Assembly: GCF_000012925.1 (NCBI RefSeq)
Contig: NC_007517.1
Span: forward strand, 1,050,001-1,082,000
Direction: 5' to 3'
DNA: 32,000 bases
Source of the DNA: Geobacter metallireducens GS-15
GTDB lineage: Bacteria; Desulfobacterota; Desulfuromonadia; Geobacterales; Geobacteraceae
Of this stretch, positions 15,296-31,649 are shown piece after piece. The number at the start of each line of letters is the position of its first letter. Positions within the stretch are counted from its first letter, which is position 1. The position numbers were made by a program, and so were the translations under genes. The notes beneath the pieces are model-generated. The model worked only from the letters and a program-made list of their open reading frames with translations, was not told the DNA's origin and ran no database searches.

Positions 15296-17197
15296 ATGGC
15301 AGATCTCAAGCGCTACAATGACGGCCTCGTCAAGCTCGACCTCTGGATCAGGAGACTCCTGACCATGGGGGCCCCTGATCTCATCGACACCGCCCTCTGC
15401 GACGGGGCGTGCGACATCGTCCGTGCCGAAACCGGTGTCCTGACGGCCATCAATCGCCAGGCCGGTCTCCTTACCTTTACGGCGGCTTCCGGGGCCTGGA
15501 ACCAGATGATGAAAGGGGTCACGGTTCCCCTGCGCAACGGCAACATCTGCGCGGCTCTGGCCGCCTGCGGAACCCCCCTCAGGGTCGACCGCCTTTCGCT
15601 CTTTTGCCGGGAAAGCTGCGAGCTCTTCCAGGTGGTGGAGATGAATACGGCCCTGCTGGTGCCCATCTTCGACGAGGGAAGGGTGGCTGCCTGTATCGCC
15701 GCGTTCCGCATGGACAAACCCTTCGACCAGGTCGACGAGCAACTGCTCCAGCAGTATGCCCACTCTGCCTCGGCGGTGCTGCGCAATTTCCGCCTCATGG
15801 AAGATCTCAGGCGCCACGCCGCCATGCTGGAAGAGGAGGTGGCGGAGCGTTCCCGGGCCGAGGAGCGGATTCGCCAGATGGCCTATTACGATTCCCTCAC
15901 CGGGCTTCCCAACCGGCGACTCTTCAATGACCGTCTCCGGCAGTCCCTCGCCCTGGCCCAGCGCCACAAGAGGCCCTTGGCGGTCATGTTCCTGGACCTG
16001 GACCGCTTCAAGCTCATCAATGATACCCTCGGCCACGCCGTGGGAGACAGGCTCCTTATGGCGGTGGCAAAGCGCCTTAGAAACTGCTGTCGCCGCGAGG
16101 GGGACACGGTGGCGCGCCAGGGAGGCGACGAGTTCATCATCAACCTATCGGCCATCTCGGATGTGAAGGACGCCTTCACGGTGGCCCAGAAGATCATCGA
16201 CGTCTTCAGAACACCCTTCGTCATTGACGGATATGAGTTGTTCATCACCACGAGCATCGGGATCAGCGTCTATCCCCACGACGGACGCTCCGGCGATGCC
16301 CTGGTGAAAAACGCCGACGTTGCCATGTACCGCGCCAAAGAGCAGGGACGCAACAACTGTCAGCTGTTTGCCCCTGAGATGAATGCCCGGGCCTTTGAGC
16401 GGCTCTCTCTGGAGAACGACATGCGGCGGGCGCTGGAGCGGGACGAATTCGTCCTCCACTATCAGCCCAAGGTGAACGTGGAGCATGGCCAGATCGCCTG
16501 CATGGAGGCCCTGGTCCGCTGGCAGCATCCCAGCATGGGGCTTGTTCCTCCGTCCCGCTTCATTCCCCTGGCCGAGGAGACCGGGCTCATCGTTCCCTTG
16601 GGAGAGTGGGTCTTGCGAACCGCCTGCCAGCAGAACCGGGCATGGCAGGATGCCGGCTATCCCACCATGCAGGTGGCGGTAAATCTCTCACCCCGCCAGC
16701 TCCGGCAGGGAGACCTGTCGGAGACGGTGGCGCGGGTCCTGGCGGAGACCGGGCTTGCCCCGGGGTGGCTCGTCATCGAGGTTACCGAAAGCATCCTCAT
16801 GGACGATGCCGAGGAGACGATCAGAACCTTCCGGCGGCTGGATAGAATGGGGGTCCGGATTTCCATCGACGATTTCGGCACTGGTTATTCGTCGCTTCAC
16901 TATCTGAAAAAGTTTCCGGTCCATACCCTCAAGATCGACCGTTCCTTCGTACGTGAGATCGCCTCCAACCCGGACGATGAGGCCATTGCCGGCGCTGTCA
17001 TCAGCATGGCAAAAGGGCTCAACCTGGGAGTGGTTGCGGAGGGGGTGGAAACCGTGGAGCAGATGGAAGTGCTCAGGGCACTGAACTGCCGGTACATGCA
17101 GGGATTCCTCTTCAGCGAGCCCGCTCCCGCCGAGCAGTTCACCCCGGTGCTCGGTCACGCGGCCACGCCGTATCTCAACTTCGGCAAGTGGTGTTGA
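15296..17197 (+). CDS. GAF-GGDEF-EAL protein (diguanylate cyclase / c-di-GMP phosphodiesterase)
   Basis: N-terminal GAF-like region, an intact GGDEF motif ([10 protein letters not shown]) and an intact EAL motif (CMEALVRW) with the downstream DDFGTGYSS. Confidence 0.9.
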
Positions 17198-17246: not shown

Positions 17247-18502
<1,256 letters not shown>

Positions 18503-28300: not shown

Positions 28301-28449
28301 TCATTAATCTGTTAAACCTCATCCCTGATTCGCCTCCCACAGGTGGGGGAGGTGGCGGGGGAGATGGGAGTGCCAACCAGAAGCCAATACAAGAGATTTT
28401 CAATTTCGTGACCGGTATCATACCCATTTCATGGCGAGAGGTGTTCTGA
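25357..28449 (+). CDS. pilY1: PilY1 tip adhesin with an N-terminal vWA domain and a C-terminal PilY1 beta-propeller
   Basis: ATG 25357 follows AGGGAGG and is followed by a signal peptide. MIDAS-type motif DNSGS at ~25513. Ca-binding-like loop DMDSNGIVDRIYVGD at ~27631-27675, within a PilY1 C-terminal-type region. Confidence 0.88.
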   Translation: MLTSRLFKKIMRMLSVPVTIAHLAAAPGIARADDTEIYSAGATMKPMVMIIMDNSGSMGDPVPYDNATAYAGTYTKDTVYQYTCTARNKKGQCTATQWQVYTGVFTDQINRDGGVDVAGQDGIDDSSTALKTGNRLNYEALPTTSKLSTAKGVLNNLVDLMYNDVDFGFMKFNTEDGGNIISKIGATITAMHGQISAINATTWTPLAEALTDAGKYFEDTYTGQYSPWNSNNWCQKAFIIIVTDGEPTHDTDTTIIGHFLDRGQTGITDANRGQKWDQDGDYNMHSTTTTDPLNNDVWVADDTYSDTVPQTFLDDVAKYLYTHDLRPDLQGTQNVTTYTIGYAHDSPLLQRTAQNGGGLYFTANNAAELEHSLLMALDDIAKKLQTYTAPVVPITRTSSGDKMYLAFFKPLAYSKFWVGDLHKYGLSSSNQIIDSAGNQATDSSGAMLDTAVPYWSVSSLLKSRSTARNIYTYLGTNSNLTDSSNAFTIANTALTAAVLGNPAKSNAANAATAARDDLINYIHGQDAYDDNGNLNWTEKRDFILGDILHSVPLVVDYNGPTATDPNRHIFFGSNDGMLHCINDANGSEEWGFVPPDALPRLKLFEEGSSHPYFVDGSVKLYQLRNSAGVITKAIIIFGQRAGGDNYYALDVTNPASPQFLWRINGSSTGFSEIGQTWSEPLIAKVKKNDSNGVPVTYDAVIFGAGFDSAQANTKAVAAAAKGRGVFIANLLTGELISSFKYTTSNGMNYAIPSNVAAVDMDSNGIVDRIYVGDLGGNLWRIGKSPNSTDPTDAQKDINLIDNWGIRKLFASNPGADGSSGRKIFYQPEIALQSGHNYVYFSTGDRDNPRSTDAVDRLYGVKDTSPDQSVFATLTENSLTNQTGVVSSSILPLTTSGWYVRLIAAAGEKSLAAPVLFNKYVLFDTFLPNNALCDIGGGAKVYAVSYLNGLYSRYSLGNGIPTEAVLVVRPTGTTAFVGAGGGVINLLNLIPDSPPTGGGGGGGDGSANQKPIQEIFNFVTGIIPISWREVF

Positions 28450-28790
28450 TGCGTTACCTGATGGTCGTTGCGGCAAGTCTTGTGTTCTGTGTCAATCTCG
28501 CCGTGGCTGGACAGGACGTTCACCGGGGGCTCCCCACACTTTCCTCTCTAGGAGTGAATTTCACCGATCTCATGACTCCGGAGGCTCACGAAGGGGTGGT
28601 CATGGAGGTGCGGGGCGCGGGAAGCTTTATTCTTCGGGAAAAGCTCTATATTATCTGCCAGGAGAGTGATGTCGACGGCACCCCGGCAAATCAGGCGAAA
28701 TTTTCCCTGAAGAAGGGGGACACGGTCAAAGCTACCGTCTACAGGCTTCCGAACAAGACTTATTTCGTCTCAGAGCTGGAAATAAAGTAA
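28449..28790 (+). CDS. Small secreted protein of unknown function (113 aa), translationally coupled to pilY1
   Basis: The ATG overlaps the pilY1 TGA (TGATG). Signal peptide MRYLMVVAASLVFCVNLAVA. I recognise no family. Confidence 0.6.
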   Translation: MRYLMVVAASLVFCVNLAVAGQDVHRGLPTLSSLGVNFTDLMTPEAHEGVVMEVRGAGSFILREKLYIICQESDVDGTPANQAKFSLKKGDTVKATVYRLPNKTYFVSELEIK

Positions 28791-28806: not shown

Positions 28807-29370
28807 TTGAATATGGGCAAACCTGTAAGAAAAACTGGGCGGACGATTGCCGTACTGGTTGTCATAATACTAGGGGCCGCGTCGATTTATGTTGTCGCAA
28901 CATGGCCCTATAACGTCGTGGGATGGATGACGTACCGCATATTGGGAAAGCCTTTCCCGTCACGGGTGACGGAGCTTCAAAACATTAAGCGTTTTCTCGA
29001 TGCGAAACGGAAGCTCAACAAGAAGGAATACGATGCGGCGTTCCAGGGATTGCAGTACCTGCGACAAAATGTGGCAGTAACATTTCCCTTTTTCAAGGAA
29101 ATTTACCTTTACCTCGGCTATATTCACGATCTGCGTGGTGATTTACGCGGCGAAGAGGCGCTTCACCGGGAGCTTGAGACAAAGGACAAGGTTTTTGCCC
29201 TATTCCTGGAAGGGTTGTATGCTATCCGGCATGGCAGGGATGTGGAGGGGAAGGGATACCTTGCCGAGTCGATAAAGCTGGATAACCAGTTCAACAGGCT
29301 CGGCAAGTACCGCGGGGTAGCCCTAAAAGCTCTCGGTACGGCAGCCCTCCCGAGAAAAAGTTCGAAATGA
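28807..29370 (+). CDS. Membrane-anchored helical-repeat (TPR-like) protein of unknown function
   Basis: N-terminal TM segment IAVLVVIILGAASIYVV, followed by a helical region with TPR-like spacing. Start TTG 28807 or ATG 28813. Confidence 0.55.
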   Translation: MNMGKPVRKTGRTIAVLVVIILGAASIYVVATWPYNVVGWMTYRILGKPFPSRVTELQNIKRFLDAKRKLNKKEYDAAFQGLQYLRQNVAVTFPFFKEIYLYLGYIHDLRGDLRGEEALHRELETKDKVFALFLEGLYAIRHGRDVEGKGYLAESIKLDNQFNRLGKYRGVALKALGTAALPRKSSK

Positions 29371-29462
29371 GGAATTTTCCCCTCAAGAAACGAACGTACA
29401 GGCCGATTAGTTAATCCAGAGGACATATACGCGAGTGTTCCTGGAAAAAACAGAATAGCTCC

Positions 29463-29546
29463 GATATCGACAATACTAAACCATCCGCGAGGGTGGGACG
29501 GAAAGCCTACAGGGTCTCTCTGAGACAGCCGGGATGCCGAAATATC
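29463..29546 (+). ncRNA. GEMM-I cyclic-dinucleotide riboswitch aptamer (c-di-GMP-I / 3',3'-cGAMP class)
   Basis: AAACC (29478-82). Stem CCATCC/GGGTGG (29481-86 / 29491-96) is capped by the GNRA loop GCGA and followed by GACGGAAAGCC (29497-29507). The 3' strand AGCCGGGATGCCGA (29527-40) resembles AGCGGGGUUACCGA of V. cholerae Vc2 as I remember it. The middle hairpin is short and atypical. Confidence 0.7.
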
Positions 29547-29582
29547 ACAATTCGTGATGCTCGGTCCCGGCATTTCTTTTTT
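29528..29582 (+). terminator. Intrinsic terminator serving as the riboswitch expression platform
   Basis: GCCGGGA (29528-34) pairs with TCCCGGC (29565-71). Inner pairs are CCGA/TCGG and ATCAC/GTGAT. Followed by ATTTCTTTTTT. The 5' arm is the same sequence as the aptamer 3' strand. Confidence 0.8.
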
Positions 29583-29742
29583 GGACCCAGAAATACAGGT
29601 TGTCAAAATATCGGCAAGGAGTGGACGGAAATTGTCAGTCATTTGCTTCAATTCATGGAGTTTCGTTGCCAGAACGATCGAAATGTTTACGGTATCAATC
29701 TTGCTTAATTCGTTTCAACTTCATTTAATATTAACTAATTCC

Positions 29743-29770
29743 TTGACATTGATTTCAATTTCAGTACATT
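29743..29770 (+). promoter_or_regulatory. Sigma70-like promoter TTGACA-N16-TACATT in an AT-rich stretch
   Basis: TTGACA at 29743-29748 and TACATT at 29765-29770, with an upstream A/T-rich UP-like tract. About 36 nt upstream of the XRE gene ATG. Confidence 0.5.
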
Positions 29771-29805: not shown

Positions 29806-30006
29806 ATGAAATTCAAGAACAACGTCAGAAAGATCAGAGAAGAACGGCTCATGAGCAAGGCTGAGCTTGCGCGCCTTGCGGGGGTCTCGCCGGCCACCAT
29901 CGACAGGATCGAGCACGGTGAGGAGTGCCGGATGGAGACAAAGAGAAAGATCATTCTTGCCTTTGGTTTTTCATTGTCCGAGAAGGAAGCGGTCTTTCTC
30001 GACTAA
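29806..30006 (+). CDS. Small XRE (Cro/C1)-family helix-turn-helix transcriptional regulator (66 aa)
   Basis: MKFKNNVRKIREERLMSKAELARLAGVSPATIDRIEHGE is a typical HTH_3 motif. The longer ORF-track start (29554) would run through the terminator and promoter. Confidence 0.75.
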   Translation: MKFKNNVRKIREERLMSKAELARLAGVSPATIDRIEHGEECRMETKRKIILAFGFSLSEKEAVFLD

Positions 30007-30027: not shown

Positions 30028-31083
30028 ATGTTTTTCTCCAAGAAAAAGGATCTCGTCGGCATCGACATAGGCTCCAGCTCCGTGAAGCTCGTGCAGCTCC
30101 GGGAGCAGAAGGGGGCTTGGCAGCTCCTGAATGTCGGCACGATGCCGCTGCCATCCGAGGCCATCGTCGACAATACCCTCATGGACAGCTCGGCCATCGT
30201 CGATGCGGTCAAGAACCTCGGCAAGAGCCTTTCCGTCAAGGTCAAGGAAGCTGCCTGCTCTATTTCGGGCAACACGGTGATCATACGCAAGATCAAGCTT
30301 CCCGCCATGCCTCCCGAAGAACTGGAGGATCAAATCCGGTGGGAGGCCGAGCAGTACATTCCCTTTGACATCAATGACGTCAATATCGATTTCCAGATTC
30401 TCGAGCCCGACGAGGACGATCCCACCCGCATGAATGTGCTCCTCGTGGCCAGCAAGAAGGAAATCATCAACGACTACGTGAATGTTTTCGCGGAGAGCGG
30501 GTTCAAACTCGTCATTGTCGACGTCGATTCCTTCGCGGTGCAGAACGCCTTTGAGCTCAACTATGAAAGCGGGCCGGAGGAGGTCGTGGCCCTCATCAAT
30601 ATCGGTGCCAGCATCCTCAACCTCAATATCGTCAGGGGGGGGATTTCGCTCTTCACCCGCGACGTCCAGATGGGGGGGAACCTCTTTACCGAAGAGATTC
30701 AGAAACAGTTCGCCTTGAGCAGCGACGAAGCGGAACGGGTCAAGCTGACCGGTGATCACCCCGACCAGGAGAAGTTGCGGAGCGTACTGGCGCGAATCAA
30801 CGAAACCCTCTCCATCGAGGTGCGCCGCTCCCTGGATTTCTACAACACGACCGCCGGCGAGGGGAGGGTGAGCAAGGTCTACCTGAGCGGCGGCGCGGCT
30901 AAAACCGCCATGCTCGCCGATGCGATCCAGGACAAGCTCGGCGTGCCGGTGGAGATGCTCAATCCCTTCAGGAAGATTACCTGCAGCGAAAAGGAGTTCG
31001 ATCCTGAGTATCTCCGGGAGATCGGGCCCCTCGTCACGGTTGCCCTGGGGCTGGCCGCAAGGAGGGTTGGGGACAAATGGTAA
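30028..31083 (+). CDS. pilM: Type IV pilus assembly ATPase-fold protein PilM
   Basis: Starts MFFSKKKDLVGIDIGSSSVKLVQL. Actin-like fold, 351 aa, followed by pilN and pilO. Confidence 0.93.
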   Translation: MFFSKKKDLVGIDIGSSSVKLVQLREQKGAWQLLNVGTMPLPSEAIVDNTLMDSSAIVDAVKNLGKSLSVKVKEAACSISGNTVIIRKIKLPAMPPEELEDQIRWEAEQYIPFDINDVNIDFQILEPDEDDPTRMNVLLVASKKEIINDYVNVFAESGFKLVIVDVDSFAVQNAFELNYESGPEEVVALINIGASILNLNIVRGGISLFTRDVQMGGNLFTEEIQKQFALSSDEAERVKLTGDHPDQEKLRSVLARINETLSIEVRRSLDFYNTTAGEGRVSKVYLSGGAAKTAMLADAIQDKLGVPVEMLNPFRKITCSEKEFDPEYLREIGPLVTVALGLAARRVGDKW

Positions 31084-31649
31084 AAATCAACCTGCTCCCG
31101 GTCAGAACGTCGAAGAAGAAGGAGACCGCCAGGCAGCAACTGGCGATTCTCGGCGTCTCGGCGGCTCTCGTGCTCGTTGCCGGCCTTGGCCTCTATGTCT
31201 ATGCCCAGGCAAAGATCAAAGCCACCAAGGAAGAGATTTCCAAGGCTGAAAACGACCTTCAGCAGCTCAAGGTCAAGATCGGCGAGCTGGAAAACATCAA
31301 GAAGCTGAAAGATGAGGTCACGAAGAAGCTCGATGTGCTCGCTCAGCTTCGCAAGGGGAAAACCGGCCCCGTCCGCAGACTCGCGACCCTGAGCGATGCT
31401 ACGCCCGATAAGCTCTGGATCACCAAGTATGCCGAGAGCGGAGCTAGCGTCAGCATCGGTGGGGTTGCTCTCGACGAGGATCTCATCGCCACATTCATGC
31501 GCAACCTCCAAAGATCCGAAGATTTCACGAACGTGGAACTCGTCGTGTCCGAGCAAACGGAGGTCGGCGGCGTGAAGGCCAAGCGGTTCGAGCTCACCTG
31601 TGCCCTGAAGGCGGTCAAGAACCCAGAGCCGCCCGCGCCGAAGAAATAG
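31077..31649 (+). CDS. pilN: Type IV pilus assembly protein PilN
   Basis: MVKINLLPVR is the conserved PilN N-terminus that binds PilM. One TM segment plus a coiled coil. Overlaps pilM by 7 nt. Confidence 0.9.
   Translation: MVKINLLPVRTSKKKETARQQLAILGVSAALVLVAGLGLYVYAQAKIKATKEEISKAENDLQQLKVKIGELENIKKLKDEVTKKLDVLAQLRKGKTGPVRRLATLSDATPDKLWITKYAESGASVSIGGVALDEDLIATFMRNLQRSEDFTNVELVVSEQTEVGGVKAKRFELTCALKAVKNPEPPAPKK

Follow-up and report, generated by a model that had tools for sequence, protein, structure and literature searches.

The archetype of the RF01051 family is the Vc2 riboswitch of Vibrio cholerae. Its aptamer is built from three helices (P1, P2 and P3) and contains an intercalating adenine and a cytosine that pairs with a guanine of the ligand. 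Vc2 carries a G at position 20, binds c-di-GMP and controls translation; its P3 is long and includes a GAAA tetraloop receptor. The homologous c-di-GMP-I aptamer Cd1, from Clostridioides difficile, controls transcription through an intrinsic terminator and is an OFF switch, the ligand favouring the terminator. GEMM-Ib riboswitches have, in place of Vc2 G20, an adenine that pairs with the adenine of the ligand. One of these, Gs1761 (pgcA) of G. sulfurreducens, has A14 at the G20 position, is selective for cGAMP and behaves as a transcriptional ON switch by anti-termination. Its crystal structures are 4YAZ and 4YB0 (Ren et al. 2015); we considered 4YAZ as a structure of Gm0970 and rejected it, since the literature gives it as Gs1761.

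Control of Geobacter pilus-assembly and exoelectrogenesis genes by cGAMP through GEMM-Ib riboswitches has been established since 2015, and the RNA of one of them, Gm0970 of G. metallireducens, has already found use in a biosensor and as a model for NMR studies. Here we analysed a 32-kb stretch of the G. metallireducens GS-15 genome (the window). We are highly confident that the element found between its minor-pilin cluster and its xre-pilMNO genes is the Gm0970 ("pilM") GEMM-Ib riboswitch of this strain, a 3',3'-cGAMP-sensing transcriptional ON switch. Like Gs1761, it has the specificity adenine, cGAMP selectivity and anti-termination logic; unlike Gm0970, Gs1761 belongs to an extracellular cytochrome gene at a different locus, binds more tightly (about 0.5-1 nM) and has a larger effect in vivo (10-fold). 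Gm0970 shares the three helices and both ligand-contacting nucleotides with Vc2 and differs from it by the specificity base A, a short P3, a GCGA loop and a terminator platform. It has an intrinsic terminator in common with Cd1, and differs in the direction of the switch and in a binding window of 25 nt, compared with 61 nt in Cd1. Biologically, the locus therefore holds nothing new in its mode of control, and what our analysis adds is modest: a conserved promoter past the terminator, which would explain why pilMNOP responds weakly to cGAMP compared with other GEMM-Ib regulons.

Identity and architecture of the aptamer

Positions 29459-29581 of the window matched the "native full-length pilM riboswitch of G. 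metallireducens" (PMC9262584 supplement) at 123 of 123 nucleotides, with no mismatches. The published numbering mapped exactly when nucleotide 1 was placed at 29463, including the U15-G38 wobble, C37-G66, A28 and C75-G102. The PilM protein encoded in the window was identical to ABB31213.1 of G. metallireducens GS-15, and the product of the open reading frame ending at 29370 was identical to Gmet_0969 (ABB31211.1, GS-15). These two flanks make the intervening XRE gene Gmet_0970, and the riboswitch in front of it the "Gm0970" aptamer (Kellenberger 2015). The insert of the Gm0970-Spinach2 sensor (2026 preprint supplement) matched 29466-29543, with two single-base differences in the machine-read text. 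The riboswitch is already published and biochemically characterised; it is the element of Kellenberger 2015 and Landgraf 2022 (PMC9262584), without sequence difference, and not a new one.

A cmscan search of both strands of the whole window returned a full-length match to RF01051 (c-di-GMP-I) on the plus strand at 29465-29541 (43.9 bits, E = 1.3e-5, model positions 1-87 of 87; gathering score 35), and no other Rfam family reached its gathering score in the 32 kb. P2, closed by a GNRA loop, and P3 formed adjacent hairpins enclosed by P1, according to both the Rfam structure and the pairing in orthologues. The upper stem of P2 has 6 bp (CCAUCC/GGGUGG, 29481-86 with 29491-96) and a GCGA tetraloop at 29487-29490; AAACC was located at 29478-29482, GGGACGGAAAGCC followed the 6-bp stem and AGCCGGGAUGCCGA was found at 29527-40. 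In P3, the 17-nt insert of the RF01051 consensus is replaced by 5 nt. The adenine at 29475 aligned to model position 11, where the consensus is G; as this is an A in place of Vc2 G20, the element belongs to GEMM-Ib. The pocket nucleotides A29502 and C29537 were both present and invariant in nine loci (Table 1). A29502 corresponds to Vc2 A47, whose base intercalates between those of the ligand. The first-pass annotation had assigned the element to GEMM-I, and every feature that it listed, among them AAACC, the GCGA-capped stem, the P3 hairpin and the P1 strands, was present where it had placed them. It had proposed the RF01051 search as a check, and the assignment was borne out by this match, by folding and by the experiments published for this very sequence.

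Table 1. Positions in the window of the riboswitch, its expression platform, the downstream promoter and the genes that follow
Feature	Position	Strand	Basis
cGAMP aptamer P1-P2-P3 (published pilM nt 1-84)	29463..29546	+	RF01051 match; identity to published construct
P1 5' strand, GAUAUCG	29463..29469	+	pairs with 29538-29546
Specificity nucleotide A (Vc2-G20 position; pilM A13; GEMM-Ib/cGAMP)	29475	+	Rfam alignment; invariant in 9 loci
P2 hairpin	29476..29501	+	Rfam structure; 100% paired across orthologues
A40, equivalent of Vc2 A47	29502	+	Rfam alignment; invariant in orthologues
P3 hairpin, short, top GUCUC-UCU-GAGAC (29514-26)	29504..29535	+	Rfam alignment; 96% paired in orthologues
C75, equivalent of Vc2 C92, Watson-Crick partner of ligand G	29537	+	published statement; 29537-29564 pairing in folds
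P1 3' strand, CGAAAUAUC, doubling as part of terminator 5' arm	29538..29546	+	folds; invariant in 9 loci
Intrinsic terminator hairpin, 44 nt	29528..29571	+	MFE folds; equivalent in all 9 orthologous loci
U-tract, AUUUCUUUUUU	29572..29582	+	sequence; T-run after hairpin conserved in all orthologues
σ70-like promoter (putative), TTGACA-16-TACATT	29743..29770	+	consensus scan 10/12; conservation
XRE-family HTH gene, Gmet_0970, 66 aa	29806..30006	+	Pfam HTH_3, E = 2.5e-9
pilM	30028..31083	+	Pfam PilM_2, E = 2.8e-86
pilN	31077..31649	+	Pfam PilN, E = 4.7e-22

The ligand is 3',3'-cGAMP rather than c-di-GMP, a point that the first-pass annotation had left open. Taken at its family name, the element would be a canonical c-di-GMP-sensing GEMM-I riboswitch, as "c-di-GMP-I" is the sole Rfam family that it matched. 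Some GEMM-Ib members bind both ligands via a protonated adenine, and among G. metallireducens strains engineered for their c-di-GMP level, Gmet0972, predicted to be activated by cGAMP, was up in the strain with high c-di-GMP and lower cGAMP. Such a c-di-GMP sensor is nonetheless very improbable at this locus. The specificity position is A and not G, and the Gm0970-Spinach2 sensor has a Kd of 1.3 uM for cGAMP compared with >50 uM for c-di-GMP. Gm0970 is quoted as having a Kd of about 16 nM for cGAMP and an approximately 1600-fold selectivity over c-di-GMP, and it is an A20G mutant of the Gmet_0970 riboswitch that is selective for c-di-GMP. Published binding data thus already largely refute c-di-GMP as the ligand. 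The aptamer could also have been a chance look-alike, formed by an ordinary intrinsic terminator of the upstream operon: its fold on its own was no stabler than that of shuffled sequences (z = -0.6). This ordinary stability is normal for a fold stabilised by its ligand. The RF01051 score above gathering, the near-invariance of the pocket nucleotides across nine loci with unconserved flanks, and the binding of ligand measured on the identical sequence all speak against chance resemblance, which is already refuted and to which we give practically no credence.

Overlap of the aptamer with an intrinsic terminator

The native pilM riboswitch has been studied by NMR and ITC (Landgraf 2022, PMC9262584). 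Transcripts of 84-93 nt bound cGAMP with a Kd of 0.25-0.44 uM; binding was detectable from 77 to 101 nt, reached full affinity by a length of 84 (29546) and was lost at transcript lengths of at least 102 nt (29564). By NMR, P1 formed only with ligand. C75 pairs with the ligand G and is sequestered by G102 (29564) in the terminator. Landgraf 2022 likewise described a cGAMP-dependent ON switch, a behaviour that rests there on the binding data and a Markov simulation (PMC9262584). In the part of the literature available to us, we found neither a single-round transcription-termination assay nor an in vivo reporter for Gm0970.

Folding of the window sequence was in line with these data. The minimum free energy of 29455-29590 was -50.4 kcal/mol (z = -3.4), and 1 of 200 shuffled sequences folded equally well; most of this structure is the long hairpin at 29528-29571, with AUUUCUUUUUU after it. 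The 5' arm of the terminator (29528-29548) consists of the 3' strand of P3, C75 and the 3' strand of P1. The aptamer and the terminator share this strand and are mutually exclusive. When the transcript was folded stepwise, an aptamer-type fold (P2, P3, and P1 when available) persisted to about 101 nt. At 102-105 nt, C75 paired with G102 and the strand around C29537 was invaded; the full terminator appeared at 109 nt, at -40.3 compared with about -23 kcal/mol. All nine loci preserve the overlapping terminator, which carries compensatory changes in L008 and in L011. A simple terminator scanner did not flag the hairpin at 29528-29571, owing to its long, interrupted stem, which falls outside the stem and loop limits of the program.

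We propose that P2 and P3 would fold first during transcription and pre-form a pocket made of A29475, A29502 and C29537. If cGAMP were bound at transcript lengths of about 77-101 nt, P1 would close (29463-69 with 29538-46). Closed P1 would hold 29528-29548, so that the terminator hairpin could not form, and RNA polymerase would pass the U-tract at 29572-82 towards Gmet_0970 (XRE) and pilMNO. Without ligand, the nucleotides from 102 onwards (from 29564) would invade and pair with C29537 and the 3' strands of P1 and P3; the terminator would form and transcription would stop. We infer that the native polymerase terminates and reads through in this way at the pilM locus. The effect on pilMNO is probably modest in size, given the conserved promoter past the terminator. 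Both the mutual exclusion of the two folds and the ON-switch logic had been read from the DNA by the first-pass annotation. Both are borne out by the Rfam match, the folding and the experiments published for this sequence, with cGAMP as the ligand. A sequence-only reading can thus pick out a genuine riboswitch together with the logic of its expression platform.

Distribution of the riboswitch among pilM loci

The comparison covered 80 pilM loci from GTDB species representatives and two same-sequence contigs, 82 loci in all. Of the 20 closest loci, 8 carried a riboswitch detected by Rfam in the syntenic place, some 460-585 nt ahead of pilM; in the 20 more distant loci that came next, the search at the gathering threshold found none. 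A covariance model of our own, built from the pilM-linked copies and run over all 82 loci, revealed no further copies among the 80 GTDB loci; its only additional matches were the two same-sequence contigs. Weak matches in L023 and L022 (E = 0.06-0.2) were judged to be noise. In this comparison, the riboswitch occurred only in nine Geobacterales loci and the two same-sequence contigs.

All nine syntenic copies had an A at the specificity position, the same pocket nucleotides, a short P3 and a GCGA loop. Standard pairs filled 96.5% of cells when the 25 proposed pairs were examined in eight orthologues, versus at most 49.5% when the partners were slid. The P1 pairs were kept in 8/8 orthologues, one position excepted, and two P2 pairs showed compensatory changes. 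Support from covariation is thin but consistent, as most pairs never vary. Published NMR of the pilM riboswitch detected an NOE contact between the tetraloop adenine A28 and P3. The element is not a new minimal variant, as had been suggested from its short central hairpin: a short P3 and a GCGA loop are common to all nine pilM-linked copies, so that the short P3 is the rule in this orthologous group, and the loop contacts P3.

In G. hydrogenophilus (L001), PilM and the XRE protein were 99-100% identical to those of the window. Its riboswitch, at 2442-2528 of that locus, differed at several positions and scored 53.2 bits against RF01051, compared with 43.9 bits in the window, which indicates that the non-coding element diverged faster than the genes that flank it.

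The XRE gene was far more widespread than the riboswitch: it preceded pilM in 67 of the 82 loci, including those of Myxococcota and Bdellovibrio. The 66-aa HTH_3 protein that it encodes was conserved at 60-85% identity in these 67 loci, which span Geobacterales, Desulfuromonadales, Myxococcota and Bdellovibrio MAGs. As a pilM-linked regulator, it appears uncharacterised in the portion of the literature available to us.

A putative promoter downstream of the terminator and the control of pilMNO

A gap of 435 bp separates 29370 from the XRE start codon at 29806. A σ70-like promoter was predicted in it downstream of the terminator, 36 nt before the XRE start codon (Table 1). The TTGAC of this promoter was invariant in the eight riboswitch-bearing orthologues, in which the stretch between terminator and promoter was unconserved and varied widely in length. 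Among 41 loci inspected, most had a promoter motif 60-85 nt upstream of the XRE start, often the textbook TTGACA-N17-TATAAT, and many of them were without a riboswitch. As relatives that lack the riboswitch also have the motif, xre-pilMNO probably possesses an ancestral promoter of its own and need not depend on read-through past the terminator; the riboswitch would then probably be an added modulatory input and not the only gate. Judged by conservation, the xre-pilM unit appears to be ancestral together with its promoter, and the riboswitch to be an addition made upstream of it in Geobacterales. The parts of the published Gm0970/pilM work that were available to us do not discuss a conserved promoter between the terminator and Gmet_0970.

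Upstream of the aptamer (29371-29462), we found no convincing σ70 or σ54 promoter; the best σ70 candidate scored 7/12, and a -10-like CAGAAT lies at 29451-29456, 6 nt before P1. Nor was a terminator detected from 29370 up to the aptamer, so that read-through from Gmet_0969 is possible. The leader may owe its transcription to read-through out of the minor-pilin/pilY1 cluster or to an activator-dependent promoter.

These observations bear on how much of pilMNO expression passes through the riboswitch. It could be functional and yet minor and lineage-specific, with xre-pilMNO transcribed mainly from the ancestral promoter at 29743-29770, and with the riboswitch and terminator mainly insulating the operon from transcription from upstream or coupling it conditionally to it; such transcription might start at a weak leader promoter or arrive as read-through of the minor-pilin/pilY1 operon, which ends at 29370. 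We rate this at slightly under an even chance. The 10/12 score of the promoter, its conservation next to an unconserved spacer, the motif before XRE in loci free of the riboswitch, the wide spread of the XRE gene set against the few Geobacterales loci that carry the riboswitch, and the lack of both a good σ70 promoter and a terminator between 29370 and the aptamer are all in favour of it. So is the in vivo response of G. sulfurreducens, where the orthologous pilMNOP operon falls only 2-3-fold in ΔgacA, compared with 10-16-fold for other riboswitch operons. On the other side, the function of the promoter is deduced from consensus and conservation only, and the conserved motif might instead serve as an operator for the XRE protein or overlap one. 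In some orthologues, moreover, good σ70 promoters stand directly before the riboswitch (L017, 10/12; L019, 9/12), which argues for a dedicated leader transcript.

A promoter of its own, of ancestral origin, would fit both the weak 2-3-fold effect and the rise of Gmet0972 at lower cGAMP, which counts against simple ON control by cGAMP. More tentatively, and with some doubt, we suggest that the riboswitch may not be the gate of xre-pilMNO but a Geobacterales-specific input, placed before an ancestral unit with its own promoter, by which cGAMP only adds read-through to a basal level. It would then couple two pilus operons conditionally and differ in this from a classical 5'-leader switch. The minor-pilin/pilY1 operon, which ends 93 nt upstream, could be the source of this read-through, given that neither a clear promoter nor a terminator lies between. 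The first-pass annotation had placed pilMNO under direct second-messenger control. The link between the riboswitch and xre-pilMNO is upheld by the Rfam match, the folding and the published experiments on the identical sequence; its directness was overstated, in view of the conserved σ70-like promoter past the terminator and the 2-3-fold effect.

Genes upstream of the riboswitch encode a prepilin peptidase, a histidine kinase with a σ54-dependent regulator, pseudopilins (N_methyl, GspH, PilW) and PilY1; downstream, the XRE gene, pilM and pilN are followed by pilO in the same-sequence contigs. Two small open reading frames lie on the plus strand between pilY1 and the riboswitch, at 28431-28790 (119 aa) and 28807-29370 (187 aa, Gmet_0969). 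Neither product matched a Pfam family, and homologues of Gmet_0969 were seen in the G. metallireducens / G. grbiciae cluster only. About 12 kb upstream of the riboswitch, at 15296-17197 (+), the window encodes a GAF-GGDEF-EAL protein, a cyclic-dinucleotide turnover enzyme. An IS110-family transposase gene (DEDD_Tnp_IS110 and Transposase_20; 17247-18461, minus strand) is located between the GGDEF-EAL and prepilin peptidase genes.
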